64,000 nt of DNA from an uncultured Gammaproteobacteria bacterium (GCA_964582615.1 CAZORP010000006.1:3426-67425); one strand, 5' to 3'. Shown: positions 35,274-52,253, counted from the first letter of the stretch. Numbers and translations: made by a program. Notes: generated by a model from the sequence alone, not told the origin.

Positions 35274-35411
35274 ATGCCAACACGCCATCACTTGTCCCGC
35301 AAAGAGCAAAATGCTCGTTTTGCCGTGAAGCGCGAAGAAGGATTTGTAAAACGCCGCAAGGCAAAAGCAATCCGCATGCGCAAGCTCGAAGCTAAAGCTG
35401 CTGCAAAGTAG
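35274..35411 (+). CDS. Small very basic protein (45 aa). It is below the ORF-track cut-off.
   Basis: MPTRHHLSRKEQNARFAVKREEGFVKRRKAKAIRMRKLEAKAAAK, followed at once by a strong terminator. Confidence 0.3.
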   Translation: MPTRHHLSRKEQNARFAVKREEGFVKRRKAKAIRMRKLEAKAAAK

Positions 35412-35418
35412 CATTCAA

Positions 35419-35451
35419 AACCCCGCTCATGTAGCGGGGTTTTTCTTTTAC
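35419..35451 (+). terminator. Intrinsic terminator
   Basis: aaaaCCCCGCTcatgtAGCGGGGtttttctttt. Confidence 0.7.
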
Positions 35452-35530
35452 ATATCCTCTTGATATTCGTTATCACCATCAACATCTTGATAGCTCTTTG
35501 ACGGTGTGGTACACTCCCCCTGCAAAAAAT

Positions 35531-35605
35531 TCCGGGGTAGCTCAGCGGCAGAGCAGTTGACTGTTAATCAATTGGTCGTGGGTTCGATCCCCACCCCCGG
35601 AGCCA
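35531..35605 (+). tRNA. tRNA-Asn (anticodon GTT), CCA encoded
   Basis: Cloverleaf: acceptor tccgggg/ccccgga, D-arm gctc-agcggca-gagc, anticodon stem gttga/tcaat (one G-U pair) with loop cuGUUaa, T-arm gtggg-ttcgatc-cccac, discriminator G, then CCA. Confidence 0.9.
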
Positions 35606-35645
35606 TGAGAAGGCGTGTGAGGTGACCCACATGCCTTGTCAAAAA
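35599..35645 (+). repeat. attL: left copy of a 47-bp direct repeat that begins in the tRNA-Asn 3' end
   Basis: ggagccatgagaaggcgtgtgaggtgacccacatgccttgtcaaaaa recurs at 59443..59489 with one mismatch. Confidence 0.75.
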
Positions 35646-36006
35646 ACCACCATTGAAAAATGGCGGTTTTTTGTTTAAAGCTTGAGCAAATAACGACCCT
35701 TGGTAACCCATCCAAAAAATCGAAGCACCTGGGACGCAAAGGCGACGAATTTTTCTCAAACACCCAAAATCACGGATTTGCCTTATTTTTTCGGTTCGAA
35801 CCCCGACCATGGTTTGGCGACCTTACTTAATCGCAGTATTATATCTGTGTTCCTTGAAATGGAATTTGAGCTGGCGAGCAGGTGCGGTCAGTCGCTGAGG
35901 TGTTGAGTTAGCTAGGCGGGTTCAGACCCCTCCCGAGAGCATCGAATTGTGCTTTCGGGCGGGGGTTGTCTTTGAACCCCTGATCTAATTCTTAACACCA
36001 AACGAT

Positions 36007-36180
36007 ATGGCCAAAAAAGTCATCGTTCGTACTGGTGGAATTGTGCCCACTTCGGGTCAGTACCATCCGTCTGGTAGTCGTGACGAGGTTACCCTGGTAA
36101 AGGGAAAGCGCGTCCCGCCTAACAACGAAGGCGTTCGCCAAACGTTTACGCTGGTCGATAAGACCAAGCATAAGCGTTAA
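36007..36180 (+). CDS. Small hypothetical protein (57 aa), first ORF inside the island
   Basis: MAKKVIVRTGGIVPTSGQYHPSGSRDEVTLVKGKRVPPNNEGVRQTFTLVDKTKHKR. Below the ORF-track cut-off. Confidence 0.25.
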   Translation: MAKKVIVRTGGIVPTSGQYHPSGSRDEVTLVKGKRVPPNNEGVRQTFTLVDKTKHKR

Positions 36181-36239
36181 GTGAACGTGAATCCTTCTCG
36201 TCAGCTTTGATTTCAATTCAGGAATAAAATACTGGGTCG

Positions 36240-37562
36240 TCATTTTGACGATTTTACCTCGCCGTTTGTAATTACGAGAGTCGTTTTGATGTGTTGGATT
36301 AGGTCCCGCTTTTCTTCCTTGGTGCCTTCCTTCAGAATATACTTTGCACAAGCGTACACATCGATATCAGGCATAATTTCCGCAACTTTCGCAGTCGCCA
36401 CGTGACCGCCTAGACTTGAGATCATTTTTGTAAGTCGATCAACTTCTTGCTTGATCCGTTCCACCGCGGCGAGTTCGTTGATGTCGACTTTATCGATGAT
36501 TTTGTAGAGTTGATTGAGTAATTCCTCCTCGCGTATGTATGGCTGTTTGCAACCCGTCATCCAGCGCTTCATGCATCCGTAGTAGACGTAGCGCTTCGTC
36601 GATCCGTCTTTCAGGCGTTTCACTTTCTGATCCGCACTAATGCCGGATCCGCAGGCGCCGCACTTGAAGATCTTCGTGAAGGCGAACTCATGTGTGCCGG
36701 GTAATGCTTTTGGTGCACATTTCATGACCTCCTGAACTTTGTCGTAAGTTTCTTTCGTGATGAGTGGCTCGTGCTTGCCGTCGTACCACTTTCCGCTTCC
36801 TTTTGGGAACTCGTACCGCCCCGTGTAGAACGGATTATCCATCATGCGATAGATCATGCTGAGCGTAATGCGCTTTCCTTTGCGGGTCGTGAGGTCGCGT
36901 TCGTTATCTAGCCATTTTTTCAAATCTCGTCCCGTCCAGCCCTCGTAGGCAACTTTGTGAAACGCTTCTTTGATGATCGGTCCACGCACAGGATCGACAA
37001 AGATTTTGCACGATCCTTTCTCGGCATACTTATCATGCAGATATCCAAGTGGTGACATGTTCGGTCGAAAGCCCATCTCGATCTTCGCACGGAAGCCACG
37101 CTTCACATTTACGCCCTTATTATCGTTCTCGAGCTTCGCCTGTCCGCACATCATCATGAGCATGAACTTGTCGCTGGGTGAGTTGGTAAACTTCGTGCCA
37201 TGCGTACGAATCTCACGCAATAACCCTTGATCCATCAAGTCCACGACCGTTCCAAGATCGCCTGCATTACGACTGATACGATCCGCCGCCCATGTGAGGA
37301 TTCCGTCGAATTTCTTTTCGCGAATGTCCCCAATTAAACGATTAAACTCCGGGCGTGACCCGGAGCTTTTCGCAGAGTGACTTTCGCGACGAACTTCGAC
37401 GACGTTCAAACCATCTCTCTCAGCCAGCTCAAGTGCCTCCTTGACCTGACTTTCGATTGACAATGCCTGACGCTCGTCATCCTCTGATGATTTTCTCGAG
37501 TAAAGGCAGTAGCGGATCGGTACAACCTTCTCTGATTCGTTATTCGTGTTTTGTGCGTACAT
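36240..37562 (-). CDS. Large serine recombinase (resolvase/invertase catalytic domain, recombinase domain and zinc ribbon)
   Basis: N-terminal YSRKSSEDDERQALSIESQ serine-recombinase catalytic motif. C-terminal CGACGSGISADQKVKRL...YYGC zinc-ribbon. 440 aa. Confidence 0.85.
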   Translation of the reverse strand: MYAQNTNNESEKVVPIRYCLYSRKSSEDDERQALSIESQVKEALELAERDGLNVVEVRRESHSAKSSGSRPEFNRLIGDIREKKFDGILTWAADRISRNAGDLGTVVDLMDQGLLREIRTHGTKFTNSPSDKFMLMMMCGQAKLENDNKGVNVKRGFRAKIEMGFRPNMSPLGYLHDKYAEKGSCKIFVDPVRGPIIKEAFHKVAYEGWTGRDLKKWLDNERDLTTRKGKRITLSMIYRMMDNPFYTGRYEFPKGSGKWYDGKHEPLITKETYDKVQEVMKCAPKALPGTHEFAFTKIFKCGACGSGISADQKVKRLKDGSTKRYVYYGCMKRWMTGCKQPYIREEELLNQLYKIIDKVDINELAAVERIKQEVDRLTKMISSLGGHVATAKVAEIMPDIDVYACAKYILKEGTKEEKRDLIQHIKTTLVITNGEVKSSK

Positions 37563-37681
37563 AAGATTTGTTTACTCCTTATGACCCACACACTACCGCG
37601 TCTGTCCCGGGTGCCTAGCCCAGGGAAGGAGGTAACTCAAACCCATCAAATACCCTTCCAAATTGCCACAATGCGTGAGTT

Positions 37682-38638
37682 TTGAGACAATACCGTCACT
37701 TTATGTCTCTTCTACGTATTAACGGCGATAAGCTCCAACAAATCCAAGAGACTGAGTTGAAGCTCGAGAAGGATTTGCAAAAGCTGACGGAACAAAACCT
37801 TGAAACCGTTTTTGGTCTTCAGTTTGTTTCGACTGAATTTGCGCTGAATAATCTTCGCATTGATACGTTGGCTTACGATACCGAGACAGCATCTTTCGTG
37901 ATTATCGAGTACAAGCGTGACCGAAGTTTTAGTGTTATCGATCAGGGCTTCGCCTATTTGGCGCTCATGTTGAATAACAAGGCGGATTTCATCTTGGAGT
38001 ACAACGAAAAAATTGGTACGAGTCTTCGCCGCGATGACATCGATTGGTCGCAAAGTCGTGTGCTATTCATCGCCCAGAGCTTTACCGCTCACCAACTTCA
38101 GGCAATCAATTTCAAGGATTTACCCATCGAACTCTGGGAGGCAAAGAAGTACAGCGACGATCTTATTTCCTTCAACCTCATTAAGGCTTTGCAATCCGCC
38201 GAATCCATTAACACCGTTTCGCATAACGAAGTCGTCTCTAAGGTGAGTAAGGAAGTTGAGGCGGTTTCTGCTGAAGACGTCTTCGCACGTGCAAAGGACA
38301 ATATCAATGATCTTTCTCAAGAATTGCGTCGACGCATTTTTGAAGTAGATACTCGTTTTCAGGAAAAAGCCACGAAGCGATATGTTGCCTACAAAATCGG
38401 TTGGAGAAATATTATCTCCATTGAGCCGGTTACCGGACGCCTTAACGTGACTTTTACTCGTACGCGTCCAGAGGATCTCAATGATCCCGAAAGCAAAGCG
38501 AAACTCCGTAATAAATCCCTAGAGCACTATAATCAATATCTCACCGATGTGAGCGTTACCGAATCGAGCGATGTAGACTATGTCATTTCGCTTTTGAAGC
38601 AGGTACTAGCGCGATTCCAAAAGGAAGAGATCATATAG
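37682..38638 (+). CDS. NucS/RecB-like PD-(D/E)XK nuclease-fold protein with an unknown C-terminal domain
   Basis: ELKLEKDLQKL...GLQFVSTEF...IDTLAYDTETASFVIIEYKRD...QGFAYL reproduces the E..D..(D/E)xK..Q..Y layout of NucS/DUF91-type nucleases. The start is probably MSLLRINGDK. Confidence 0.5.
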   Translation: MRQYRHFMSLLRINGDKLQQIQETELKLEKDLQKLTEQNLETVFGLQFVSTEFALNNLRIDTLAYDTETASFVIIEYKRDRSFSVIDQGFAYLALMLNNKADFILEYNEKIGTSLRRDDIDWSQSRVLFIAQSFTAHQLQAINFKDLPIELWEAKKYSDDLISFNLIKALQSAESINTVSHNEVVSKVSKEVEAVSAEDVFARAKDNINDLSQELRRRIFEVDTRFQEKATKRYVAYKIGWRNIISIEPVTGRLNVTFTRTRPEDLNDPESKAKLRNKSLEHYNQYLTDVSVTESSDVDYVISLLKQVLARFQKEEII

Positions 38639-38650
38639 ATTCAGTAGGCA

Positions 38651-38680
38651 AAAAACCAGCGCATAAACGCTGGCTTTTTG
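38651..38680. terminator. Bidirectional terminator between the convergent 37682..38638 ORF and hsdR
   Basis: aaaaaaCCAGCGcataaaCGCTGGctttttg. Confidence 0.7.
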
Positions 38681-38687
38681 TATCTGA

Positions 38688-41642
38688 CTATTTGTGTTCG
38701 TTGACCGACTTTACCACGTGGTCGAACATCTTTTCGCCGAAGTACGCCTTTAGGTCTGGATTCTTGTCGAGTTTTTTGTAGAAGTCAAAGTGACGGTTTA
38801 GCATCTCAACTAGCTCTTGGCCGAGCACCTCGTCGAATTTGATCTTTGCCGTATCCCGCGCGTTGTTTTTAATCGACCCCTGCAACATTGCGTTATTTAC
38901 CAACCTCTCGCCCAGCTGATTCGTAATAACGACATCTTCGAGAGTGAACTCAGTGCCAAATCGATCGTTGATGTCCGTGATGATTTTCGACAGACGATCA
39001 TGTTCCTTCATCTCTTCGCCTCGCTTGCCGCTTTGCATCGGTTCCAACAATCCATGCTCGTCCTCCAGGTGGATCGCGTCCTGCCCACGGTGTACGAGCT
39101 TGTATGATTCCATGTCAACGCTATCCAGCACCGCTGTTGGCAACTCTTCTTTAATTCGCGGTAATTTTTTCAAGAGCAAGCGTGTGAAAGTGTAGAGTTT
39201 TTCCAGTTCAGAGCTTTCGTACGGAATAATCTGTGAAGCAAACGCATAACGGCGGACGAAATCGGTACACTTCTTGCGGAAATCTTCCTGCTCTTGCGGC
39301 AGGCAATCCTCGAATTGTTGCACTGTCGCATCAAGGATGGCGTTAATCGTCGCCGGAGGCGCGTTGCGAAATAGTTCGTGTACGAATCCGTCCACCTCAT
39401 GCTGTGTGAACAGCTTAAAGGAATAGAGATCGCGCTCGAGGTCATGGAGGATATTCGGGTCCGTGCCTTCGGAAAGAACGGTGGTCGTGTAGTATGGTTG
39501 GAACGATTCTTGGATGTCGGCAGCATCGTTTACGAAGTCGAGCACAAATACCTCGTCCTTGTCCGACGTGGTGCGATTCAATCGGCTAAGCGTCTGCACT
39601 GCGCTAACGCCACTCAGCTTTTTATCGACATACATCGAGGCGAGGAGGGGCTGATCGAAACCTGTCTGGAATTTTTCGGCGACAATTAGGAATTTGAACT
39701 CGTCCTGCTCGAACGTCTTCGCAGTGGTCGCCTCAGGAACGCCATTCATGCCTCCTTCGGTATATTCGGTCACTCCGTCCTTAACCGTGCCGGAAAACGC
39801 TACCAGAGCCTTATACGGGTAATTGTGTTCGCGTAGGTAGGCATCCATAGCTATCTTGTAACGCACGGCATGTAAACGTGACTTTGTCACAATCATGGCC
39901 TTGGCTTTGCCGTGAATTTCCTTCGCGATTCGCGCGCGGAAATGCTCGGTCATGATCTCAACCTTCTTTTGGATTGCGTGCTCGTGTTTTTCAACATAAC
40001 CAATCAAAAGACGTTGAGCTTTTTTCTTGTCGAATTCCGGATCGTCCTCAACTTTCTTCAACAACGAAAAATACGCCTGATACGTTGTATAGTTTTTGAG
40101 TACGTCCAAGATAAATCGCTCCTCAATGGCTTGTTTCATCGAGTACAGGCTGAACGGATAATACTTTCCATCAACTGGACTCTTTGTTCCGAACAACTCA
40201 AGCGTTTTTTGTTTTGGAGTCGCGGTAAACGCAAAAAAGCTGATGTTATCCGTTTTCACCTTTCGGCTCCGGAGTTTTTTCAAGATCATCTCTTCTGTCG
40301 TCTCAGGCTCTTCTGAATCCTGTTGTGCCGCCGCGTCGAGACTAGAGGTCGTTAATGCTTCACGGAGATTCGCGGCTCCTTCACCGGTTTGTGATGAATG
40401 TGCCTCGTCAATAATCACCGCAAAGTTTTTTCCAGGAAGATTGCCGATTGAGTCGACGATAAACGGGAATTTTTGAAGAGTCGTGATGACGATCTTTTCT
40501 CCGGTTTCCAACGCATCCTTTAACTCCTGTGAACCTTCAGTAATCGCTTTCACGACTCCCGCGCGTTGCTCGAACTGCGTGACCGTATCGCGTAACTGAC
40601 GGTCGAGCACACGACGATCCGTAATAACAAGAACGGTATCAAAAACCTTTTTGTCATCATGGTTGTACAGTTCTGAAAGACGATGCGCAGTCCAACCAAT
40701 CGTATTACTCTTGCCGCTTCCCGCACTGTGTTGGATGAGATAGTTGCGACCAGCGCCATTCTCACGTGCATCTACGAGCAAACGCTGAACGGTGTCACGC
40801 TGATGATAGCGTGGAAAAATCAACACTTCCTTGACCGTCTCCTTTCCTTTCTCATCCGTGCTCTTAAGTTTTTGCAGCGTGATGAATTTCCCAACGAGCT
40901 CGAGGATGCTCTTCTTGGTCCAGACATCCTCCCACAGGTACGAGGTCTTATAGCCTCGGTCATTCGGAGGGTTGCCCGCGCCGCTGTTATAGCCCTTGTT
41001 GAACGGCAAGAAGTAGGTTTTGAGTCCAGCAAGCTTCGTCGTCATGTAGACCTGGTCGGCGTCCACAGCGAAGTGTGCCAGACATCGCTTGAAAGCCAAA
41101 AGAGGCTCTTTGTGATCTCGATCCGTCCGGTATTGTTGGATCGCGTTTTTCACCGTCTGTCCGCTCAATTGATTTTTTAGCTCAACGGTAAAAATCGGAA
41201 GACCGTTGAGGAAGATAACGGTATCAATGGACAGATCCGGGTTCTTTTCGCTGAAGTGCACCTGACGCATGACGCTCAAGACATTCGCCTCATAAAGCCG
41301 TCGCGTCTCTTCGTTGATGGCGGAATTTGGCGGGAAATATGCCATCTTGAAATTCACACCATGATCAGTGAATCCATTTCGAAGAACATCAAGCACACCC
41401 CGATTCTTCACCTCATCCGCAAGCCGACCAAATAAATGTTCGTTGAATTCTTCTCCATGAATTTCTAAGAGTTTACCAACCGATTCAGGTTGCGTTGCGT
41501 CGAGGAACTCCAAAACCATTTCAGGATCCACACAAAGACTCTTGAGATAAAGCTGGTTCGACTGCTTGCGATATCCGTTGACCTCGACGAGCTGTTGCTC
41601 GATATATTCTTCGAAGCCGATTTCTTTAGTATTAGTTGGCAT
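38688..41642 (-). CDS. hsdR: Type I restriction enzyme R subunit
   Basis: 984 aa. SF2 helicase motifs (HSAGSGKSNT motif I, VIIDEAHSSQTGE DEAH box). N-terminal nuclease region. Last gene of the hsd operon. Confidence 0.95.
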   Translation of the reverse strand: MPTNTKEIGFEEYIEQQLVEVNGYRKQSNQLYLKSLCVDPEMVLEFLDATQPESVGKLLEIHGEEFNEHLFGRLADEVKNRGVLDVLRNGFTDHGVNFKMAYFPPNSAINEETRRLYEANVLSVMRQVHFSEKNPDLSIDTVIFLNGLPIFTVELKNQLSGQTVKNAIQQYRTDRDHKEPLLAFKRCLAHFAVDADQVYMTTKLAGLKTYFLPFNKGYNSGAGNPPNDRGYKTSYLWEDVWTKKSILELVGKFITLQKLKSTDEKGKETVKEVLIFPRYHQRDTVQRLLVDARENGAGRNYLIQHSAGSGKSNTIGWTAHRLSELYNHDDKKVFDTVLVITDRRVLDRQLRDTVTQFEQRAGVVKAITEGSQELKDALETGEKIVITTLQKFPFIVDSIGNLPGKNFAVIIDEAHSSQTGEGAANLREALTTSSLDAAAQQDSEEPETTEEMILKKLRSRKVKTDNISFFAFTATPKQKTLELFGTKSPVDGKYYPFSLYSMKQAIEERFILDVLKNYTTYQAYFSLLKKVEDDPEFDKKKAQRLLIGYVEKHEHAIQKKVEIMTEHFRARIAKEIHGKAKAMIVTKSRLHAVRYKIAMDAYLREHNYPYKALVAFSGTVKDGVTEYTEGGMNGVPEATTAKTFEQDEFKFLIVAEKFQTGFDQPLLASMYVDKKLSGVSAVQTLSRLNRTTSDKDEVFVLDFVNDAADIQESFQPYYTTTVLSEGTDPNILHDLERDLYSFKLFTQHEVDGFVHELFRNAPPATINAILDATVQQFEDCLPQEQEDFRKKCTDFVRRYAFASQIIPYESSELEKLYTFTRLLLKKLPRIKEELPTAVLDSVDMESYKLVHRGQDAIHLEDEHGLLEPMQSGKRGEEMKEHDRLSKIITDINDRFGTEFTLEDVVITNQLGERLVNNAMLQGSIKNNARDTAKIKFDEVLGQELVEMLNRHFDFYKKLDKNPDLKAYFGEKMFDHVVKSVNEHK

Positions 41643-43002
41643 ATATTTTTCTTAATGTAGCAATTCTTTTCTGTATCGAAGATGAACTTTTATTAACTTC
41701 CTTCATGAAAGCCATAACTTCGTAATGAAATCCGTTATGGATTAGACGTTCGGATAATCGATCTAGCGATGATACGAAGTCGTCTTTTTCCTTATCGTGT
41801 AATCGCTCATGAATTGCCGAAAACTGATATGCTCTAGCTTCTTTAAGAAAATCATCATCAAGATACCAGGAAAAAAGTTTAACCCTTTGAGGATAGGTGA
41901 CCTTTTCCCAATTACAGGTTAAGGCACGATTCAGTAGGGGTAAACCGCGAGCTTTAATTTTCTCCCGCTGATCGCTGACGATTATCTTTGTCACCTCAGC
42001 GATAAAAAGGTTTGATTTGTCTGGATCTTTGTTTGATCCAGGCTGAAGCAAAATATCAAATAGTTTGTATGACCGGTATTCGATCATCTCATCGACAGTT
42101 CTGATAACCACCTTCTTTTGATTGATGGCTAAACCCAAAGCAAGCAGTTTTCTGGAAGCGCAGTAAATGACATGTTCAATTTGATCACGTTTTTTTACAA
42201 TGATTGCCTGGTCATCGGCGTATCGGAAATATTTTGCGCCAATTTCGTCGCAAATTTTCTTGATGTAAATATCGTATTCTTGGAGATAAAAGTTAGCCAA
42301 AATTCGCGAGCAGTCAGACATGGCATCTTGTGGCAACCCTACCGTTTGAGGATTGTAATGATTGATCGACTTGTTCCAGAAATTTAGGAAATGAAAAAGA
42401 AGTGAAAGTTCGTCACGATATTTTCCATCAAAAACTTCTCCTATTTTGCGTTTTAAAATGTCTAAATTAATAGAATCATAAAAATTGGCGATATCTAACT
42501 CAACCACGTATCCCTCGCTAGATTCCTTCAGTGAAACGTAAAGTTTCGCGTTGAAATCCTTGTATGCGATATACCACGCCGTTGGCGAAAACGACCACGA
42601 TGGCATTGATACTGTTGGATCGTAGAGATTTTCAATCTTTTTTTGTATTTCTGCTTCTTCTGCGTCTCTGTAGTTTAGACCACTGATGCTCCAGCCGCCG
42701 AAAGTATTTTCGGTTCTATTTCGAGCAAGTTTATGCTCGAGTCGAATAACGCAATAGTAATAAACGATGTAGTCCCTAATGGTAAAAACAGGAGAGATAC
42801 GAGCAACGCCAGATCCTTTATTGTGAGCAATGTAAAATTCTGGCTTTACTGGATGATATGTTTTGCTTTTAATTGCCGTATAAACCGACTTCAAAAGTTC
42901 CTCTTTTTCTTGGTAGGAAGAGGGGGTATTGAGAGGTAAATTCTGGAATGCTTTCCAGAATTTACGACCAAAAATCTTTTTGAATGATTTATAACTAATC
43001 AT
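41632..43002 (-). CDS. Reverse transcriptase (Abi/UG-like stand-alone RT) embedded between hsdS and hsdR
   Basis: RT motifs: motif 2 region YIAHNKGSGVARISPVFTIRDYIV, motif A LDIANFYDSINLDIL, motif B' GLPQDAMSDCSRILANFYL, motif C FRYADDQAII (YADD), motif D LAINQKKVVIR. About 150 aa of C-terminal extension with no known domain. It overlaps the hsdR start by 11 nt and abuts the hsdS stop. Confidence 0.8.
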   Translation of the reverse strand: MISYKSFKKIFGRKFWKAFQNLPLNTPSSYQEKEELLKSVYTAIKSKTYHPVKPEFYIAHNKGSGVARISPVFTIRDYIVYYYCVIRLEHKLARNRTENTFGGWSISGLNYRDAEEAEIQKKIENLYDPTVSMPSWSFSPTAWYIAYKDFNAKLYVSLKESSEGYVVELDIANFYDSINLDILKRKIGEVFDGKYRDELSLLFHFLNFWNKSINHYNPQTVGLPQDAMSDCSRILANFYLQEYDIYIKKICDEIGAKYFRYADDQAIIVKKRDQIEHVIYCASRKLLALGLAINQKKVVIRTVDEMIEYRSYKLFDILLQPGSNKDPDKSNLFIAEVTKIIVSDQREKIKARGLPLLNRALTCNWEKVTYPQRVKLFSWYLDDDFLKEARAYQFSAIHERLHDKEKDDFVSSLDRLSERLIHNGFHYEVMAFMKEVNKSSSSIQKRIATLRKIYAN

Positions 43003-43015
43003 GTATACGTCAGAC

Positions 43016-44233
43016 CTATCCAAGAACAGTCATCACATTTAGTGACTGACTATATTCCGTGAGGAGATTAATCGATTTATCAATGGAGCCGATCACTGAG
43101 TTAAACAATTTTGTTTTTTCGTTTAAGTAATCAACGATTCTTTTTTGTTCGTTAATTTGAGGTAGAATGATCTTTAGGTTTTCAATCACTCCCATGCCAA
43201 TATTTTGTTGTGTCCCGTAAGACCAAGATAACTTAACCTGATCTTGAAATAATTTTGTTTGTAGAAAGAAATAAAGATATTCAGGCAAAACAACGTCCCT
43301 ATTTGCTCTGATTAGGGCAAGCGGTGACCAGATACTAAATTCCTCGTCAGTTTCAACTAGACCAATTCTTCCGGTTGTTGCGCCAGATTTCACCATAAAA
43401 ATATCACCCCGTTGTGGCTTACATTTTTTGCAGAATTCCTCATGATCTTCACGGCTAATGAATCCACGCTTTTCAGCAAAATCGATCGTGTTGTTTCCTT
43501 GAATTGATTGGGCTGAAAGGAATGGGATACCAGAATCAAGTATTTCCGGTGTCGAGTGTGGTCCGTCAGTAATTTTTGTTTTAACAACTTGTTTCAATGA
43601 ACGAATAAAGAAATCTTTTGGGATTTTTTCGATCCATGCAGTATTACTATTGATAAGTTCGACATCATTATTTAAGCCTCGCGTGATTGCTTGATGAATT
43701 ATGAATGCCCTTTGCTCATTTAGTTTTTGAATGAGCCTTTTTTTGTCTTCTATCAATCGTGTGATGATAGTCGAATTTGAATCAAGTTTTTGTACTACTT
43801 TTTCTTGATCGGCTAATGCCGGTAGTTCAATTTTCTGATTACCAATAAAAGTCCAATTTGCGCGAGGCATTTTAGAACCGTAGGTTGAGTTGTTGACCGC
43901 CTTAATGAAGTCATCAGCTCTCAGTCTGTACGCAAGAAATGCTGGATTAACCTTTTCTTTTTTTGAATTGAGGACCAGAAGTTCGCCCGTACAAACCCCC
44001 TCACTTTTAGCCAATACAACCTTCGCGAGATACGGACGAAGCTTTCCGAATAGAACATCGTCTTTTTGGTAATAACTAGTAACACCATCGGAAACGATTG
44101 GGGTTTCCGATTCAATGATCTTGCCCGTGCCGCTTTCAATATTTTCCAGCCCAAGATACGGCAATCCGTCTTCGGACTGACCTCGAGCTCCACGGAGCGG
44201 GGCAATGTATTTGATCTTGATAGATTCGCTCAT
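43016..44233 (-). CDS. hsdS: Type I restriction-modification S (specificity) subunit
   Basis: Two target-recognition domains separated and followed by conserved coiled-coil repeats (LPALADQEKVVQKLD...; LPQINEQKRIVDYLNE...). AT-rich. Start ATG is 1 nt after the hsdM stop. Confidence 0.9.
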   Translation of the reverse strand: MSESIKIKYIAPLRGARGQSEDGLPYLGLENIESGTGKIIESETPIVSDGVTSYYQKDDVLFGKLRPYLAKVVLAKSEGVCTGELLVLNSKKEKVNPAFLAYRLRADDFIKAVNNSTYGSKMPRANWTFIGNQKIELPALADQEKVVQKLDSNSTIITRLIEDKKRLIQKLNEQRAFIIHQAITRGLNNDVELINSNTAWIEKIPKDFFIRSLKQVVKTKITDGPHSTPEILDSGIPFLSAQSIQGNNTIDFAEKRGFISREDHEEFCKKCKPQRGDIFMVKSGATTGRIGLVETDEEFSIWSPLALIRANRDVVLPEYLYFFLQTKLFQDQVKLSWSYGTQQNIGMGVIENLKIILPQINEQKRIVDYLNEKTKLFNSVIGSIDKSINLLTEYSQSLNVMTVLG

Positions 44234-44234
44234 A

Positions 44235-46247
44235 TTACAAACTTCCCATGAGCGTTGAAATTTCTCGCTCAAGCGTTTCTATTTCTTGTTTGATAGTCTC
44301 AATTGGACGTGGCGCTTCGTACTTATAGAAGAAACGCGTCACTGGGATTTCATAACCAACTCGACCTAGCTTTCCATCCTTGTGATCCGTGTAGGATTCA
44401 TCAATCCACGCATCTGCAACATACGGCCTCACTTCACGATCAAAGTACACTCGAACATCTTCGTTCAGTGGCACGTTTTCGCTATCTCGTAGGGTGCTAT
44501 CGGGTTCGATGTTCCCATCGGCAAGAGTGCAGACATCGGCATTTTCATCGCGTTCACCGAGCATTGATAAGATGAATTTCAGAACGGGTTTCTTAAGTTC
44601 AACACCTTGTTCGTCGCATCGCTTCTTGATCGCCTCGACAAACTTTTCTTGGTTCAAATACACCTCGTCACCGAAATTCTCGATAAGTTGGAGAAGCTTT
44701 TGTTTTTCCGGATCGGGCAAGCGATCCTTGGTCATGAAGATTTTCCAGAACACCTCATGCCCCTTGAGGCGTTGGATGCGCTCGGCTGAGGCCTGGAAGT
44801 TCATGCGCAATGGACGTTCAACGACGATTTGTCGATATCCGAAATCGCTATTCTTGAAGATCTTGGAGTATTCATTTTCGGTAAAATCCTTGTAGAGCTC
44901 AAGAACTTTCGATCGATGCGCTTCGGTGATTTCGTTGCGCTTGTTGCCTAAGCTCTTTCGCATCTTCTCAAGGAAGCCACGGGCATCAATGATTTGAACG
45001 AGACCCTTGCGCTTCTCTTCTTTTCGATTCGTCACGAACCAGAGGTATGTAGGAATGCCTGTGTTGAAGAAGAGTTGATCCGGAAGCGCGACAACCGCTT
45101 CGAGCCAGTCGTGCTCCAAAATCCAGCGACGGATTTCGCTTTCACCTTGACCAGCATCACCCGTGAAGAGCGGCGAACCGTTGAAGACAATGCCGATGCG
45201 CGAGCCTCCTTCACTTTCTGGTCGCATCTTTGAAATAAGGTGCTGGAGGAAGAGGAACTGACCGTCGGATGAGCGTGGAAGCCCCGCGCCAAAACGTCCG
45301 GCGTATCCTCGCTCAGCTTCGCGTTCGACGGCGTCCATGTCTTTCTTCCAGTCCACGCCGAATGGTGGGTTGGTCAGCATGTAGTCAAATTGCGTGCCGA
45401 AGAACTGATCGTTCGAAAGTGTGCTTGCGAGCGAGTGATCCTTTTCGCCACCCTTGATGTTGTCCGGATTTTCACCCTTGATCAGCATGTCGGATTTACA
45501 CATGGCGTAGGTGACCGGATTCAGTTCCTGACCATAAAGATACACGCCAGCATCCTTGTTCACGTCGTTACGGATGTACTCCTTGGCGATAGAAAGCATT
45601 CCACCTGTTCCGCATGCGCAGTCGTAGACGGTCTTGATGATGTGTTCCTTTTTCAGCTTCTCGCGGTCCGGGGCGAAGAGAATTTCGACCATGAGCTTAA
45701 TCACGTCGCGTGGAGTGTAGTGTTCTCCAGCCGTCTCATTGGATTGTTCGGAGAACTTGCGGATGAGTTCTTCAAAGATTGATCCCATCTCGTGATTGTC
45801 GACAACATCGGGATGCAAGTCGACCTTGTTCAATTCCTTGATGATGAGATAGAGCAGGTTGCCGCCCTCGAGCCTCGACAACTGGCGATCGAATTCGAAC
45901 TTTTCAACGATGTCCTCGATATTCGCGCTGAAGCCGCGAAGATAGTGTTTGAAGTTGGCGGCAATGTGGTCTGGATCTTCGAGAAGCTTTTCAAAGTCGT
46001 ATTCGGATACGTTGTAAAAGCCGACTTTCGAAGCGGCTTTTAAGACGGGGTCGATATCAATCTTCGCTTTCAGCTCATTGTATTGTTGGAGTACCTTTGA
46101 CTTTGTGGGTGCGAGAAGAGAATCAAGGCGTTTTACTACGACGAGAGGCAAAATGACATCCTGATATTCGTGTTGCTTCCAACTTCCACGAAGTATCTCG
46201 GCGATGTTCCAGATGAGCTGTGCCTTCTCTCGAAAATTGTTGGTCAT
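44235..46247 (-). CDS. hsdM: Type I restriction-modification M (N6-adenine methyltransferase) subunit
   Basis: DCACGTGGML (motif I, AdoMet binding) and NPPFGVDWKKD (motif IV). HsdM N-terminal domain present. Confidence 0.95.
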   Translation of the reverse strand: MTNNFREKAQLIWNIAEILRGSWKQHEYQDVILPLVVVKRLDSLLAPTKSKVLQQYNELKAKIDIDPVLKAASKVGFYNVSEYDFEKLLEDPDHIAANFKHYLRGFSANIEDIVEKFEFDRQLSRLEGGNLLYLIIKELNKVDLHPDVVDNHEMGSIFEELIRKFSEQSNETAGEHYTPRDVIKLMVEILFAPDREKLKKEHIIKTVYDCACGTGGMLSIAKEYIRNDVNKDAGVYLYGQELNPVTYAMCKSDMLIKGENPDNIKGGEKDHSLASTLSNDQFFGTQFDYMLTNPPFGVDWKKDMDAVEREAERGYAGRFGAGLPRSSDGQFLFLQHLISKMRPESEGGSRIGIVFNGSPLFTGDAGQGESEIRRWILEHDWLEAVVALPDQLFFNTGIPTYLWFVTNRKEEKRKGLVQIIDARGFLEKMRKSLGNKRNEITEAHRSKVLELYKDFTENEYSKIFKNSDFGYRQIVVERPLRMNFQASAERIQRLKGHEVFWKIFMTKDRLPDPEKQKLLQLIENFGDEVYLNQEKFVEAIKKRCDEQGVELKKPVLKFILSMLGERDENADVCTLADGNIEPDSTLRDSENVPLNEDVRVYFDREVRPYVADAWIDESYTDHKDGKLGRVGYEIPVTRFFYKYEAPRPIETIKQEIETLEREISTLMGSL

Positions 46248-46248
46248 A

Positions 46249-47154
46249 TTAGGCGAAGAGTTTTTGGTATCCCTTAAGGGTGAAGACGCGATTACGTTCG
46301 CCGCCGTCCACGATCTCGAGTAAGTGCAAGTCCTCGACGAGACGAGTCATGAGTTTATTAAGCGTGTGATAGGTGATCTTAAACTTTTTTCCATAAGCCG
46401 CCTCAATCTCTCGCACCGTGAATGCCTCGCGCTCCATGAAATACGGAAGGAGCTCAAGTGCTACTTTTTTGGGACGCGTCTCAAGGGAGGCGACGCTGTC
46501 CTTATATCGTGCCTCGATGATGCGGACGGCGTGATAGATGCTCTGCGTACGTTCTTCTGCGCGAAGAATGCTTTGCAAAAATTCATCAGGAGTTGTGTTC
46601 TGATCCTCAGTCATGAATTTCGCAAACGGAAGCATTGGACTTGGAGTCAGGCCAAAATGGACAAACAAAGCGTGAAGCAGTGCGTTCGCCATCACATGGT
46701 TACCTGCACGAAATGGAGCCAGTTTCAAAAAGGCAGTATGGATAAGATGAATCCTTGTGAAGACATCAATTCTCACCCGTCCCACGATTTCATTTATCGT
46801 TTCGTTAAATTCTCCTCCCACTTCATCCGTACGGAATTCACCAGGAAAATATCGGTAGCCGTCGGGATGATCAAAAATCTGTCGATGTAGTTTTTCAAGG
46901 AAAGGCGACCCCATTTCAATCTGCGGGCGCAGGGCAATAAGGGCTGACGCGTATCGCTTTGCACACTCGATATCACCATGAGCACTGGCCTTATTCTCCA
47001 AACGGGCTTCCGTCTGGAATGCCGCTTCGGCCTCATGGGTGAGTAGGAGCCTTGTTGGAGCCGACAACTCCCCCAAAGCCTCTCTCCAGGCACTCAAAAT
47101 ACCTGCAAAAAATGCGGCTTTTCCGATTGCTTCCATGTCTATCGTATTTTCCAC
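46249..47154 (-). CDS. Fic/DOC-like protein with a divergent active-site motif and a C-terminal winged helix; first gene of the hsd operon
   Basis: APFRAGNHVMANALL occupies the place of the Fic motif HPFx(D/E)GNGRxxR (F, G and N kept; the catalytic His is replaced). C-terminal ...LMTRLVEDLHLLEIVDGGERNRVFTLK wHTH. Its stop is 2 nt from the hsdM start. Confidence 0.65.
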   Translation of the reverse strand: MENTIDMEAIGKAAFFAGILSAWREALGELSAPTRLLLTHEAEAAFQTEARLENKASAHGDIECAKRYASALIALRPQIEMGSPFLEKLHRQIFDHPDGYRYFPGEFRTDEVGGEFNETINEIVGRVRIDVFTRIHLIHTAFLKLAPFRAGNHVMANALLHALFVHFGLTPSPMLPFAKFMTEDQNTTPDEFLQSILRAEERTQSIYHAVRIIEARYKDSVASLETRPKKVALELLPYFMEREAFTVREIEAAYGKKFKITYHTLNKLMTRLVEDLHLLEIVDGGERNRVFTLKGYQKLFA

Positions 47155-47484
47155 AATGTAATAAAATCTTCACTTATTTACATTGAGAAGTCTATCACAT
47201 CCTGCATACCAGTCAAGTAATCCGCTATAAAATTACCAAATTTACCCAAGATTCCTTCAATTTCGCAGAAGCCCCATGGGGGTAAGGAAGGGCTGTGAAT
47301 AGCCAATCAAATCGCTTTACGTGAATTGGTTTGTAAGCTATTATTTAGGAGCTTCACTACTCAGCCTAATAAAGGCCGAATTTCGGCTTAACCGGATCGC
47401 GCGCGATAAGCGGTGTCCGGTTAAAACAGTTCTAGCACGATCCGTGCTTGGGCTGGGTAGTGAAGCACCACCGGGCATCGCTTT

Positions 47485-48648
47485 TTGAATTATCGAGCGA
47501 TTCCGGGATGCTTTATGGAATCGACTCTTCTAGAAAAATTACTATCCGTCCCCTCCAGAATTTTCGAACTTGAGAAGCGCGTTTCTTCTTTCAATGTGTT
47601 CGAGGCAACTGGCGCGGTGCGCCGTGAACTTCGGCACTCAGACTTCATCGGTTTCCTTTTTGACCCATCCGAAACGCATGGACTCGATGAGACCCTTTTT
47701 CAAATATTTTGCGAGAGCTTCGGCATAACCATTTCTCAAACTCCAATCATCACCGTATCCCGCGAGTGGGAGCACATCGATATCATGGTTCGCGACCGTG
47801 CGAATAAGGTTATCCTCGTCATCGAAAACAAGATCGACACATCGGAGCATTCAGACCAACTCCAGCGATACCGCAAGATTGTTGACGCCGCGTATCCAGA
47901 TTACGCGCGTCATTATTTTTATCTCACAAAAACAGGAGAGGAGCCGTCAGACAGCCATTGGGCAATTCTGAGTTATGCGGACGTTCGCTCGTTCATGGAG
48001 CGTCTTACTGACGAGTCCGTGAATGGTGACGTCACGACCGTTCTTACCCATTATGCAAACATGATTGAACGCCATTTTATGCCGGATAACGAAATAGCCC
48101 AGCTCTGCCGAAAGATTTACAATGACCACAAAAGAGCGATCGATCTAATCATTGAACATAGACCGGAGGGCGGAGAAGATGTTTTCGATAAGCTCCGTGA
48201 GTTGATCAACCAGTGTCCCGATTTCGAGCTCGACCACTCCGACGTGCACCGCATTCGCTTCGCCGTTCCGGCATGGGACAGTCTTCCCGACATGAAGACT
48301 TCCAACTGGACGCCGAGCAAGCGATTCGTCCTTTTCGAGGCGAAGAACAATGTCGACGGAACCGAACGTGTTCAGCTCAAGTTGTTTCTTGGTCCGACGC
48401 CAAGTAAGATGAGAGAGGAGCTATTCCAGCACGTCCAAGGCGCAAAAGATGCCTTCCGTCAGAGTCGTCGCGAGCTGGGTGAAAAGTGGGCGCAAATTTA
48501 CAACATGGAACTTCTTGGCGCGGACGATGTCCAGCATGACGATAAGCTGAAGATGCTCGAAAACAACTGGAATCACTTTTTACGACAGGATTTTCCGCTC
48601 ATCAATCAGAGCATCCGTGCATTCATCGAGTTACAAGATTCCAAATAA
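47485..48648 (+). CDS. PD-(D/E)XK nuclease-superfamily protein (PDDEXK_4-like)
   Basis: N-terminal FNVFEATGAVRRELRHSDFIGFLFDP...HGLDE, then HIDIMVRD...VIENKID...QLQRY (D, ExK, QxxxY). The start may be M11 (MESTLL). Confidence 0.6.
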   Translation: MNYRAIPGCFMESTLLEKLLSVPSRIFELEKRVSSFNVFEATGAVRRELRHSDFIGFLFDPSETHGLDETLFQIFCESFGITISQTPIITVSREWEHIDIMVRDRANKVILVIENKIDTSEHSDQLQRYRKIVDAAYPDYARHYFYLTKTGEEPSDSHWAILSYADVRSFMERLTDESVNGDVTTVLTHYANMIERHFMPDNEIAQLCRKIYNDHKRAIDLIIEHRPEGGEDVFDKLRELINQCPDFELDHSDVHRIRFAVPAWDSLPDMKTSNWTPSKRFVLFEAKNNVDGTERVQLKLFLGPTPSKMREELFQHVQGAKDAFRQSRRELGEKWAQIYNMELLGADDVQHDDKLKMLENNWNHFLRQDFPLINQSIRAFIELQDSK

Positions 48649-48654
48649 CAGTCT

Positions 48655-50121
48655 ATGCTGACCAAGTCCAACTTCATGCAATTCCTCCGCTGTTCTTGCG
48701 AGCTTTGGCTCGTGAAGCAGCGGCCGGATTTGGTTCCGCCGACCGACCCCGCGCTCCAGCGCATCTTCGACGAGGGAAACGTGGTGGACGCGTGGGCGCA
48801 GAAGCTGTTCCCGGGCGGCGTGAACGTCGACGGGTTCGGCAAGCCAGCCGCTGAGAACACGAAGAAGGCGATCGCCAATGGTGTGACCGTCCTGCTCCAG
48901 CCGACCTTCATGACTTCGCAGCTGTCCTGTCGTTGTGACATCCTCACGAAGAACACCGACGGATCGTGGGACATCTACGAGGTGAAAAGTTCGACGGACG
49001 TGAAGGAAGAACATATTACTGACGTCGCCTTCCAGCGCATCTGCATCGAGGAGGCGGGCGTTCGCATCTCGCGCACGTTCCTCGTCCACGTTAACAACCA
49101 GTACGTTCGCAACGGTGAGATTGATCCCGAACAATTGTTCACGAAGGTCGACATCACGCACCAAGTTGAGAACGTGATGCCGATGGCGAAGAAGGAGATT
49201 CCTCGCGCCCTTGCCGTTCTCGACTGGGACAAGGTGCCGCGGCTCCTGCACGTCATGTCCTGCAACGACCCAGCCGAATGTGAATTCATCGCGTGCTATT
49301 TCAATACCCTTGATGGCGCCGAGAAGTATTCCATCGCCGCATCGCTCCCGAAGGATAAGCTTGTCGGGTTCTTGGAACGCGGACTCATCACGCCCGAGCA
49401 GGTTCCAACCGATGTCATAGCCGAACTTGGCGAGGTGAAGCTTCCTGACGTGAAGAGCGAGCCGACGCTGCATGTCGATAAGGAAGCGATCAAATCCGAA
49501 CTCGGCGGTCTCCAGTATCCGCTCTACTTTTTGGACTACGAAACGTATTTTCCGGCAGTGCCGCTCTTTGACGGCTACCGCCCGTACCAGCACGCGGTGT
49601 TCCAATACTCCGTCCACGTCGTGCGCGAGCCGGGCGCAGAGCCAGAGCATTTCGAATTCCTCGCGGGCGAATTGAAAGACCCCGCGCCGATGGTCGCGGA
49701 GTCCCTCAAGAAACATATCGGTGATACGGGAAGCGTGATTGTATGGAACGCCCGCTTCGAAGCCTCGCGCAATGCGGAAATTGGCGAGCACCTGCCGGAG
49801 TTTGCGAACTTCATGACGGACATCAACGACCGCATGTACGACTTGATGATGATCGTGAAGAAGGGTTACTACGTCGACTCCCGTTTTGGTGGCAGCGCGT
49901 CCATCAAAAAAGTTTTGCCAGTTGTTTGCCCCGAGCTTTCGTACAACGACCTCGCCATCCACGAGGGCGGCACGGCATCCGCAAGCTGGGCGACGCTCAC
50001 GAACGCCGCGATTCCCGCCGAGGAACGCGAGCAACTACGCCAGAACATGTTGGAGTATTGCTCGTTGGACACCTTCGCGATGTTTGCCATCTTCAAGAAG
50101 CTACAGATTGCGTTGTCGTAG
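48655..50121 (+). CDS. DUF2779-type protein: Cas4/RecB-like PD-(D/E)XK nuclease fused to a DEDD (DnaQ-like) exonuclease
   Basis: N-terminal SNFMQFLRCSCELWL and DIYEVKSSTD (ExK). C-terminal YFLDYETYFPAVP (Exo I D-x-E), VIVWNARFEA (Exo II) and YDLMMIVKK (Exo III). It starts 7 nt after the upstream nuclease gene. Confidence 0.7.
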   Translation: MLTKSNFMQFLRCSCELWLVKQRPDLVPPTDPALQRIFDEGNVVDAWAQKLFPGGVNVDGFGKPAAENTKKAIANGVTVLLQPTFMTSQLSCRCDILTKNTDGSWDIYEVKSSTDVKEEHITDVAFQRICIEEAGVRISRTFLVHVNNQYVRNGEIDPEQLFTKVDITHQVENVMPMAKKEIPRALAVLDWDKVPRLLHVMSCNDPAECEFIACYFNTLDGAEKYSIAASLPKDKLVGFLERGLITPEQVPTDVIAELGEVKLPDVKSEPTLHVDKEAIKSELGGLQYPLYFLDYETYFPAVPLFDGYRPYQHAVFQYSVHVVREPGAEPEHFEFLAGELKDPAPMVAESLKKHIGDTGSVIVWNARFEASRNAEIGEHLPEFANFMTDINDRMYDLMMIVKKGYYVDSRFGGSASIKKVLPVVCPELSYNDLAIHEGGTASASWATLTNAAIPAEEREQLRQNMLEYCSLDTFAMFAIFKKLQIALS

Positions 50122-51834
50122 ACTTCGACGTTGTCGCCTTGCGTTCTGCTGATCGTTCAATACTTCGCAACCGTGCCCGCTCATGGTATTCGGCACGGGT
50201 TAATTGTTTTACGGGTGGCGTGGGTACAGCTCGCCACCGACCAGGGCCATCCCACTGCACGCCGGCGTGTACGAATCGTTCGTTCATCACTCGTTGAAGC
50301 TCCGGGAACTTTTTCATCGCATCCATTTCAAATTCAACGTTCTTCCAAATTTGTTGGAGCTCGATTTTCTCGATGTGGTACAAATCTCCGACCGCCATCC
50401 CTATCTCAATCTTCGCCCGGTTCTTCCCATGCACGGATAGCACAAGCGTGGTCAGCGCATCGACGAGGTCATCGTGCCTCGTGCTTCCAAAGTTGACGAT
50501 TTGATCTATCAGCTCCTTTGGGCAGTTCTCCGGGAAAAGTATCTTGCCCGTCTTGATGAGCCCACTGATACCGTAGAGTCTGTCGCGCTTGTCCATGCGG
50601 CCTGGGAGATACTCCGTCACGCGGCGCACGCCGCGTACCTTGAGATGTTGTCCGAAGACGCCTTGGTACCCTACGCTTTCGTAAAACACTTCGACGTTTC
50701 CTATTCCGCCAAGCTTCTTGATCATCTCCATGCACACGCTCGCCGAGGGATCGAATTCCAGTTGTTTATTTACAATGCCTGGGAGAATATAAATCTTTTG
50801 GTCTTCGCCCCTGCCTTCGACGATTGCCGGAATCATCGACGTACTGTCTCCGCCCGGACTCATTGACCGTGCGAGGTCGACCCCTATCGCCCTCATCGTC
50901 ACGCCGGAGAATTGGTGGTCAGGTTCGTAGTAGAAGATATCGGATTTCGTGATGATCTGCTCGTCGGGCGGAATGATCTCGAGCTGGTATTCCTGCCGCC
51001 AGGTCTTGGTAGACGGGAATGACCGCTTGAACGCGGCGATGCTCGCCTTGTCGGGGAACTTCCCAGGCCAGGCACAGACGCCCTTCTTGCCAATGAGCGG
51101 GCATTTGATCACCTGCGCGTCGAACGTTCCCGCCTTCACTTTGGCGATAATGCGGTTCGGCAGGCTGTCCTCGTGGAGGTTGTTCGCGATCATGATGACG
51201 CGCGTGCCGATGTCGCCAACGCCGAGCAAGTCGCTATTAAACCAATCCTCCAGCTTGTCGCGCGATTCCTGCATGCGCACCGAAGCAACATCCTCGATGT
51301 CGTCGAGGATGAGCACGTCGGGACGGTAATGCTTGAAGCGCACGCCGCGCATCGACTGCTCGACGGAAATTCCCGCGATCTGCGCGTCGTATTTCTGGAA
51401 CGTCAGGGCGGTGGAGTTCCACGGGGTCGTTTCCTCGGATACCGCACCGAAGTCATTTTGGAGCATCGTGTTCGTCTCAAACTCCCGCTTGATCGCGTCA
51501 ATGAACTTCTTCGTCTGCTCGATGGTCTTTCCGACGATCAGGACGAAGTGTTTCTGTTGCTCGCCAAGAATCGACCAGATGGGGTACGACATCGTGCAGA
51601 TCGTGCTCTTCGCGCTCCCGCGGAACGTCATCGCGACCGCAAACCTGATCTTGTCGTTTTGCGTCAGATCGAAGAGCCTGTGGTGGATGTCTGCGGATGG
51701 ATACTTGATGTAGTCGCCGAAGTACGTTCCGAAGAAGGCCTTGTGCGACTTTCTCGCGAGTTCAATTCTCGCGGTCTTGTTGTTCATCACCAGATCCAGC
51801 ATCTGCTGGTCTAGGGGATTCTTGCTTGTCATAT
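50093..51834 (-). CDS. terL: Phage terminase large subunit
   Basis: ATPase Walker A-like FRGSAKST and Walker B VLILDDIED, plus a C-terminal RNase-H-like nuclease domain. The ORF's Arg-rich N-terminal 77 aa are probably not translated (start at MTSKNPL). GC-rich. Confidence 0.8.
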
Positions 51835-52253
51835 GGTTCTGGGGTGAGAGAAATGAGTCCGAGATTCTGGTAAGAGTTGGTGAGCTTTTCCTTCTCATCG
51901 TCCGTGAGATTTTGCTTTGTTGGGGTCGTAATCTGCACCTTGTTCGCGTACGCCTTGTGGCGGCTGCGCAACCAAAACGAAATCGCGGCGAAGTTTTGTT
52001 CCTTGATCGCGCTGATGAGTTGGGATTCTGCCATGTCGTTGATGAATCCCGTTCCTTCGCCAAGTGCCTCCTCGGTTTGCGCGGCGAATGTCACATCCTC
52101 CGCGATCCATCGGTAATACGTCGCGCGGGCGACGCCGAGCTTCTCGCACGCGACCTGGACGATCGGGATCTTGCGAAGGTGGTCGACAAGAAGCTTTTTC
52201 TGCTCTTCCTGCCGCTTGTCGATGAGCGGGCTATTTCGCTTTGTCCTTGGCAT
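51762..52253 (-). CDS. terS: Phage terminase small subunit (HTH type)
   Basis: ACEKLGVARATYYRWIAED HTH near the N-terminus. It overlaps the terL start. Confidence 0.65.
   Translation of the reverse strand: MPRTKRNSPLIDKRQEEQKKLLVDHLRKIPIVQVACEKLGVARATYYRWIAEDVTFAAQTEEALGEGTGFINDMAESQLISAIKEQNFAAISFWLRSRHKAYANKVQITTPTKQNLTDDEKEKLTNSYQNLGLISLTPEPYDKQESPRPADAGSGDEQQDREN

Follow-up and report, generated by a model that had tools for sequence, protein, structure and literature searches.

In a 64,000-nucleotide (nt) stretch of DNA from an uncultured Gammaproteobacteria bacterium (GCA_964582615.1 CAZORP010000006.1:3426-67425; hereafter, the window), a reverse transcriptase (RT) gene lies between hsdS and hsdR of a type I restriction-modification (RM) operon. 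Our analysis showed that this RT is an intact, single-gene module whose profile match places it firmly in the named UG/Abi group UG13b. Furthermore, RM operons from several unrelated families have acquired relatives of the RT on repeated occasions, and the association is not obligatory. We consider it reasonably probable that the gene encodes an autonomous RT of the abortive-infection type that serves as a second defense layer within the RM operon, and that its embedding reflects co-transfer or co-regulation and not a role as a subunit of the restriction enzyme.

The RT belongs to group UG13b and has a predicted class 1 fold

Against the PADLOC profile RT_UG13b (PDLC03750), the RT scored 407.5 bits (E 1.9e-122), with residues 3-451 aligned to profile positions 2-428 of 430. 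The runner-up among the PADLOC RT profiles was UG21 at 98.8 bits, and the retron, intron and DRT2 profiles scored far lower; UG13b is favored over any other PADLOC RT profile by approximately 100 orders of magnitude. The Pfam match was to RVT_1 (8.5e-14). A database search returned 946 homologues, nearly all of 455-465 amino acids (aa), which span many bacterial phyla, including many lineages of the candidate phyla radiation (CPR), as well as some archaea. UG13b is one of seven RT groups that were given a predicted role in defense when their loci were inspected by hand, on the basis that members share an operon with known defense genes or have such genes on their flanks (Mestre et al. 2022, NAR 50:6084, PMC9226505).

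The three core motifs that a sequence-only reading of the window had pointed out (LDIANFYDSI, GLPQDAMSDC and FRYADDQAII) were all found in the RT translation. The catalytic residues D170 of motif A and Y261, D263 and D264 of motif C (YxDD) were invariant among 26 homologues, and no inactivating lesion was seen there. An AlphaFold2 model of the RT, built on 26 homologues (predicted local distance difference test score, pLDDT, 83.8; predicted TM-score, pTM, 0.82), contained an RT core of fingers and palm, one predicted disordered loop (residues 108-143) and an all-helical C-terminal domain (residues ~303-455, pLDDT ~90). When this model was compared with the PDB by Foldseek, the best full-length matches were DRT6 (9wy8, TMq 0.54), DRT4/UG15 (9vdo, 0.53; 9l9s, 0.51), and AbiK and AbiA (0.50), and a profile search aligned residues 265-449 to UG15 structures.

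The C-terminal region had been described from the sequence as a tail without assignable function. The model and the Foldseek matches instead point to the kind of conserved helical domain that class 1 UG/Abi RTs typically have and, together with the profile search, to fusion of the RT with a C-terminal alpha-helical repeat (alphaRep) domain. Both its sequence and its predicted fold group the RT with the enzymes of class 1 UG/Abi, whose groups include UG15, AbiK and AbiA (PMC9226505). Residue Y147 was considered as a priming residue, by analogy of spacing with DRT4 Y125, and was dropped since the position varies among W, Y and F.

The operon is intact and its genes are tightly packed

The open reading frame (ORF) listing and the junction sequences gave five consecutive minus-strand genes at 38688-47154, in the order Fic-like, hsdM, hsdS, RT and hsdR, in agreement with the packed arrangement that had been read from the sequence. 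The hsdM, hsdS and hsdR ORFs are all full-length. HsdM matched Pfam HsdM_N (6e-22) and N6_Mtase (4e-62) and PADLOC MTase_I (6e-274), and carries an NPPF motif. HsdS matched Pfam Methylase_S in two stretches and PADLOC Specificity_I (3e-77), and HsdR matched Pfam HSDR_N, ResIII, SWI2_SNF2 and T1R_D3-like and NCBIfam TIGR00348 hsdR (2e-58). The operon thereby holds what defines a type I RM system, i.e., an HsdM with HsdM_N and N6_Mtase domains, an HsdS with two target-recognition domains, and an HsdR with a nuclease N-domain and a superfamily 2 motor.

A gap of 1 nt separates the Fic-like gene from hsdM, and another of 1 nt separates hsdM from hsdS, while the RT overlaps hsdR by 11 nt. These three junctions lie within the range of overlaps or gaps of 1-11 nt given previously; the gap between hsdS and the RT is slightly larger, at 13 nt from the RT ATG (43002), although an alternative TTG (43023) would give an 8-nt overlap instead. 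The start codon of hsdS is ATG, and an alternative TTG is present at 44272. Because the genes are so tightly packed, the RT appears to be co-expressed with the operon, and it is very probably co-transcribed with it.

Only one candidate operon promoter was located in intergenic DNA, 5' of the Fic-like gene (Table 1), and this promoter-like site can be called suggestive at most, since its match to the consensus is weak and shuffled sequence contains more matches of this kind than the region does. Downstream of hsdR, a hairpin (38656-38673) is followed by a T-run on the plus strand, and AAAAAA stands directly before it, giving a T-run on the minus strand. On weak consensus evidence, this hairpin looks like a bidirectional terminator.

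Relatives of the RT are embedded in diverse RM operons

To survey the genomic context of the RT, we scanned GTDB with one genome per species, which gave 128 RT relatives; 80 loci were kept and 79 were usable. The loci (L numbers below) were annotated by ORF calling, followed by iterative hidden Markov models made from the Hsd, Fic-like and other island proteins of the window. RM genes adjoined the RT in 22 of the 79 loci (28%), 20 of them type I and 2 type III-like, and were always co-directional with it. In 16 of the 22 RM-linked loci, the distance between the RT and an RM gene was no more than 20 nt, often with a 4-nt or 8-nt overlap, and a start/stop overlap of 4 nt between the RT and hsdS was frequent among them.

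At least five gene orders were seen in the RM-linked loci. The order S-RT-R was found in L001, L011, L040 and L048, and with an extra gene in L047 and L078; R-M-S-RT was found in L023 and L030, M-S-R-RT in L010, L061 and L074, R-M-RT in L006 and L009, and S-RT in L004, L017, L028, L035 and L057. The type III-like loci (L018 and L071) have Mod and Res genes in a Mod-Res-RT arrangement. With the exception of L001 and L011, the HsdM proteins of the RM-linked loci were 23-31% identical to HsdM of the window, and identities this low indicate that several unrelated type I families are involved. The third-closest relative of the RT (P0004, 64% identity; L081:2220-7491 and L082:1261-6514) is found in the order HTH, N6_N4_Mtase, ResIII, RT, with the RT at the 3' end.

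In a neighbor-joining tree of the RTs, RM-linked members occupied at least five separate places, and a large clade made up of remoter relatives, most of them labeled as Bacteroidota, was never RM-linked. The tree was incongruent with RM type: the relative with 64% identity stands behind a type III-like system, and one with 45% identity is in a homologous type I operon. The RT apparently passes from RM systems of one type to those of another.

The remaining 57 of the 79 loci (72%) had no RM genes within 6-10 kb of the RT, which is evidence that the RT does not depend on the Hsd complex in an obligate way. The sequence-only reading had held that it would be overturned if the RT clustered within a known family whose typical context already is type I hsd operons. 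Our results come close to that case, in that the RT belongs to a named group.

No recurrent partner other than RM genes emerged from BLAST clustering of 663 neighboring ORFs within 6 kb, which yielded a single RM cluster. Among 118 upstream co-directional ORFs of RM-free loci, no Pfam family had more than 3 members and most of the ORFs were housekeeping genes, and no small accessory flanking ORF common to the RT loci was found. One example of a stand-alone RT lay in an integrase island beside an AAA_15/AAA_21 ATPase. A search of phage collections gave no RT match and one of plasmid collections gave three weak matches, and thus provided no evidence of carriage of the RT by phages or plasmids.

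In 2 of the 80 loci, the RT frame was split into two ORFs (L020:9992-10714 and L024:10004-11377). The cause could be a frameshift or an assembly error, or the gene could be a pseudogene.

hsdS is exchanged beside a conserved RT

The genome that holds the window is itself Uhrbacteria-like, of a candidate phylum. A closely related operon was found in a metagenome-assembled genome of Candidatus Uhrbacteria (L001), in which the island has the same order, i.e., DUF2779, PDC-S26, Fic, M, S, RT, R, PDC-S18 and serine recombinase. Identity between the window and L001 was 94% for HsdM, 94% for HsdR, 95% for the RT and 87% for Fic, but only 53% for HsdS (L001 hsdS 8783-9994). A metagenome contig (L087) showed the same 11-nt overlaps, with identities of 87% for the RT and 91% for HsdR, while its hsdS (L087:1-531) was ~27% identical over the aligned part. 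Thus, hsdS is the sole operon gene that has been replaced between these close relatives (53% and ~27%, versus 87-95% on either side). This contrast indicates that hsdS undergoes the usual kind of exchange while the RT remains in place, and it sets a recombination boundary right at the junction of hsdS with the RT.

A more distant version of the operon is carried by another organism (L011, also recovered as L083; 36% GC, 16 contigs) in the order Fic-M-S-(146-aa ORF)-RT-R, with identities to the window of 62% for HsdM, 56% for HsdR and 45% for the RT. The 146-aa ORF between hsdS and the RT (L011:7501-7941, equal to L083:7564-8004) overlaps the RT start by 4 nt; it had no Pfam match and no homologue in the other loci. 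Since the order Fic-M-S-RT-R is kept in so distant an operon, the arrangement appears to be old and not the product of a recent insertion.

The RT and hsdS of the window are, as had been noted, more AT-rich than hsdM and hsdR, with GC contents at third codon positions (GC3) of 0.374 and 0.355 versus 0.581 and 0.572, respectively. This difference had been taken as consistent with a cassette inserted into a pre-existing operon. A recent insertion is doubtful: the order is kept in L011, only hsdS has been swapped, and a GC3 of the RT and hsdS below that of the adjacent hsdM and hsdR was also seen in the unrelated RM-RT operons L011, L040, L010 and L023. Because the dip recurs in unrelated loci, it looks like a property of RT and hsdS genes and not a sign of recent arrival. 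It perhaps reflects frequent horizontal replacement or different expression.

A proposed second defense layer and the alternatives to it

We propose that the first layer of defense at this locus would be the intact type I RM system (HsdM, HsdS and HsdR) and that the second would be the autonomous UG13b RT, a single gene without an adjacent noncoding RNA (ncRNA) or partner gene. By analogy with AbiK, Abi-P2, DRT4 and DRT6, the RT would probably oligomerize and make untemplated single-stranded DNA (ssDNA) primed from its own residue, and a phage factor would turn this activity into abortive infection once a phage escapes restriction. Previous studies showed that AbiK, Abi-P2 and DRT4 carry out untemplated DNA synthesis primed from their own residue (PMC9508834; PMC12783706), and that RTs of the DRT4/DRT6 type produce protein-primed random ssDNA and are activated by a phage DNA-binding protein (PMC12783706). 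Class 1 enzymes are likewise described as making untemplated, protein-primed DNA elsewhere (PMC13174585). The embedding of the RT would then represent co-transfer and co-regulation of complementary defenses, i.e., ‘guilt by embedding’.

Several points weigh against this proposal. The defense activity of UG13b, untemplated synthesis and protein priming are all suggested by analogy, and co-transcription is deduced from gene packing only. The Foldseek TM-scores of ~0.5 denote a shared architecture and not close similarity. No conserved tyrosine equivalent to DRT4 Y125 was identified in the RT homologues; the best candidate priming residues are S137, in the disordered loop (S or T in 71 of 75), and Y49 (74 of 75), and the conservation of Y49 may simply be that of RT motif 1. 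Finally, an embedding rate of 28% with frequent 4-nt overlaps with hsdS stands against one embedded instance of DRT type III in ~1,270 (Payne et al. 2024 preprint, bioRxiv 10.1101/2024.01.29.577857), and a rate so far above that figure could mean more than passive co-location.

The last point bears on the possibility that the RT is a guard of the PrrC type, held inactive by, or sensing the state of, the restriction complex and firing once that complex is disabled by an anti-restriction protein from a phage, such as one of the Ocr, ArdA or Stp kind. Embedding would in that case stem from a partnership that is physical or regulatory. The linkage of 22 of the 79 loci to RM genes, always co-directional and within 20 nt in 16 of them, fits such a guard, as does the frequent 4-nt overlap with hsdS, which suggests translational coupling. 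So do the persistence of the order S-RT-R from 95% down to 45% RT identity, the swapping of hsdS beside the RT without disturbance of the RT, the finding that RM genes are its only recurrent neighbors, and the precedent of PrrC, the gene for which is found almost only inside type I loci. However, the 72% of RT homologues that lack an RM gene within 6-10 kb, the varied position of the RT in the operon (following S, M or R, or lying between S and R) and the incongruence of RT phylogeny with RM type all speak against it, and the RM families partnered with the RT are unrelated and include type III-like systems, which is hard to square with one specific protein interface. We regard a guard of this type as unlikely. 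Similarly doubtful is the proposal that UG13b RTs are preferential partners of RM systems, and not random passengers, acting as guards translationally coupled to hsdS or hsdR that would sense when the restriction complex stalls or is inhibited, or sense the DNA products of that complex, and respond by DNA synthesis. That the RT is instead a hitchhiker without a defense role, a selfish or decaying gene kept by an operon that is under selection, we consider improbable. The defense role of UG13b does rest on prediction, and the AT-rich codon usage of the RT is unlike that of its neighbors; nevertheless, the ORF is full-length, its catalytic residues are invariant and its C-terminal domain is conserved across bacterial and archaeal phyla, the RT is 95% identical to that of L001, on a par with HsdM and HsdR and consistent with similar constraint, and a split RT was seen in just 2 of ~80 loci.

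Two further explanations concern other kinds of retroelement, and the searches made for these also bear on the earlier claim that the RT is a protein-only enzyme of the UG/Abi class without an ncRNA, which held up. There is no intergenic space beside the RT, so no adjacent ncRNA can fit, and when 35-51 kb was scanned against Rfam at E<=0.1, tRNA-Asn was the sole match, with no intron or retron RNA. The location of the RT directly 3' of hsdS, the sole hypervariable gene of the operon (53% versus 94-95% identity between the window and L001), would suit a diversity-generating retroelement (DGR) or a like device that rewrites the neighboring hsdS target-recognition domain. No template/variable repeat pair was found in 35400-52500, however, where the longest direct repeat (34 nt, 76% identity) lay far from hsdS. 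Moreover, there is no noncoding space for a template RNA, the RT fits the UG13b profile and not other RT profiles, most RT homologues have no hsdS neighbor, and hsdS appears to differ through common swapping of whole domains; the DGR explanation is very improbable and can be taken as effectively refuted. Scarcely credible, too, is the chance landing in the operon of a mobile retroelement, whether group II intron or retron. Besides the match to Pfam RVT_1, what could be cited for it is weak NCBIfam similarity to group II intron maturase and retron RTs, all far under the cut-offs: the group II intron profile TIGR04416 gave 77 bits against a cut-off of 300, and retron RT profiles gave 50-55 bits against 407 for UG13b; retron and intron scores fall ~300 bits below the UG13b score. 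Coding genes adjoin the RT ORF on each side, with no flanking noncoding DNA, and its predicted C-terminal domain is helical, of the DRT4/DRT6/AbiK type, and not a maturase X/thumb domain with an endonuclease. Retron, DGR and group II intron readings of the RT were set aside on the Rfam scan, the repeat search and the lack of room at the junctions.

The Fic-like gene and the surrounding defense island

The first gene of the operon had been called a divergent Fic gene. It is co-directional with the remaining operon genes, and it is also degenerate: at the position of the catalytic motif HPFxDGNGRxGR (HxFx(D/E)GNGRxxR), the Fic-like protein reads LAPFRAGNHVMAN, which does not conform to the motif of a Fic AMPylase, while the homologue in L011 carries IHPFEDGNGRIGR. 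The protein gave no Pfam Fic match, and is homologous along its length to the L011/L083 counterpart, an intact Fic_N+Fic protein. PADLOC SoFic matched it in two stretches (E 5.4e-12), the better of which covered C-terminal residues 192-299. As judged from its sequence, the first gene encodes a degenerate member of the Fic family that has kept fold-level homology and a C-terminal winged-helix-like region, and it is probably catalytically dead. It may persist as a regulator by means of its winged-helix-like part.

The operon is located within a defense island of ~14.5 kb adjoining tRNA-Asn (35531-50121), the features of which are collected in Table 1. No att direct repeats of the tRNA-Asn 3' end that would delimit the island were found.

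Table 1. Positions in the window of the operon genes, candidate regulatory sites and other island features.
Feature	Position	Strand	Evidence or remark
tRNA-Asn	35531-35605		
Small ORF, 57 aa, between tRNA and serine recombinase	36007-36180	+	MAKKVIVRTGGIVPTSGQYHPSGSRDEVTLVKGKRVPPNNEGVRQTFTLVDKTKHKR
Large serine recombinase	36240-37562		
PDC-S18/DUF5655	37682-38638		
Convergent intergenic region 3' of hsdR	38638..38687	.	GC-rich hairpin between A-run and T-run
hsdR, restriction/translocase subunit, 984 aa	38688..41642	-	Pfam, TIGR00348
RT, single-gene, group UG13b, 456 aa	41632..43002	-	PADLOC RT_UG13b, Pfam RVT_1
hsdS, specificity subunit, 405 aa	43016..44233	-	Pfam Methylase_S, PADLOC Specificity_I
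hsdM, type I methyltransferase subunit, 670 aa	44235..46247	-	Pfam, PADLOC, NPPF motif
Fic-like, first operon gene	46249..47154	-	Whole-length homology to L011 Fic; PADLOC SoFic
Promoter-like site 5' of Fic-like gene	47189..47216	-	TTGACT-16-TAGACT with TG
PDC-S26/PDDEXK_4	47485-48648		
DUF2779/Cas4-like nuclease	48655-50121		

Significance and relation to known systems

The embedding of defense genes in type I RM, BREX, DISARM and Hma loci was described previously as a general rule, with PrrC as its extreme (Payne et al. 2024, bioRxiv 10.1101/2024.01.29.577857); the statement in the sequence-only reading that type I loci host embedded defense genes accords with this rule. The further statement that an RT between hsdS and hsdR is not a characterized arrangement applies to experiments only. 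Our literature searches yielded general papers and no explicit description or test of an RT inside an hsd operon, but UG13b is a named group, its predicted role in defense was drawn from such context, and embedding is a described rule. The locus is therefore a good example of a known pattern and not a new kind of system, and, with embedding in type I RM already established, a specialist would expect it rather than be surprised by it.

What is new here is modest, namely the first quantification of the preference of UG13b for RM systems, the variety of RM contexts, and a clean example from the CPR (Uhrbacteria). The literature searches found no count of how often UG13b is RM-linked, and the main text of Payne et al. 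(bioRxiv 10.1101/2024.01.29.577857) singles out no RT with a high embedding rate. With RM embedding in about a quarter of species representatives, far above the rate of another DRT type, the RT is a reasonable candidate for the idea of synergy or a guard. The window locus together with L001, L087 and L011/L083 provides a compact natural M-S-RT-R construct with which to ask whether a class 1 RT acts alone or co-operates with restriction. The window locus also indicates that stacked defense islands are carried by CPR bacteria of very small genome size. Were the RT a guard of the RM system, a polymerase would form the basis of a PrrC-like backup, in what would be the first case of an enzyme that makes DNA wired to one that cuts it.

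Among known systems, UG13b itself is the closest: the RT of the window resembles the group in its full-length profile match, length class, single-gene form and C-terminal helical domain, and nothing appears to set it outside the group. DRT4 (UG15) and DRT6 (UG12) are the nearest structural matches over nearly the whole length of the RT (TMq 0.51-0.54); they likewise consist of an RT with a helical C-terminal domain and do not need an ncRNA. However, their sequence identity to the RT is only 12-16%, the RT has no identified counterpart of Y125, and location in RM operons is not described for them in the papers cited. AbiK, Abi-P2 and AbiA have the same overall architecture (Foldseek TMq ~0.5) and are protein-only systems of abortive infection, but they are longer (~540-600 aa), reside on plasmids or prophages and match different family profiles, and AbiA has a HEPN domain.

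PrrC and RloC are likewise stand-alone second-line defense genes that lie between hsd genes and are co-transcribed with them. PrrC is an ABC-ATPase anticodon nuclease that is physically restrained by EcoprrI and is almost only found embedded, whereas the RT is unrelated to it and is embedded in ~28% of loci; with a guarded effector of the PrrC kind, the RT of the window has location alone in common. Finally, the systems found through guilt by embedding represent the same phenomenon as the locus described here, and the genes that flank the operon match PDC-S18 and PDC-S26 in PADLOC, to which Payne et al. added the PDC systems.

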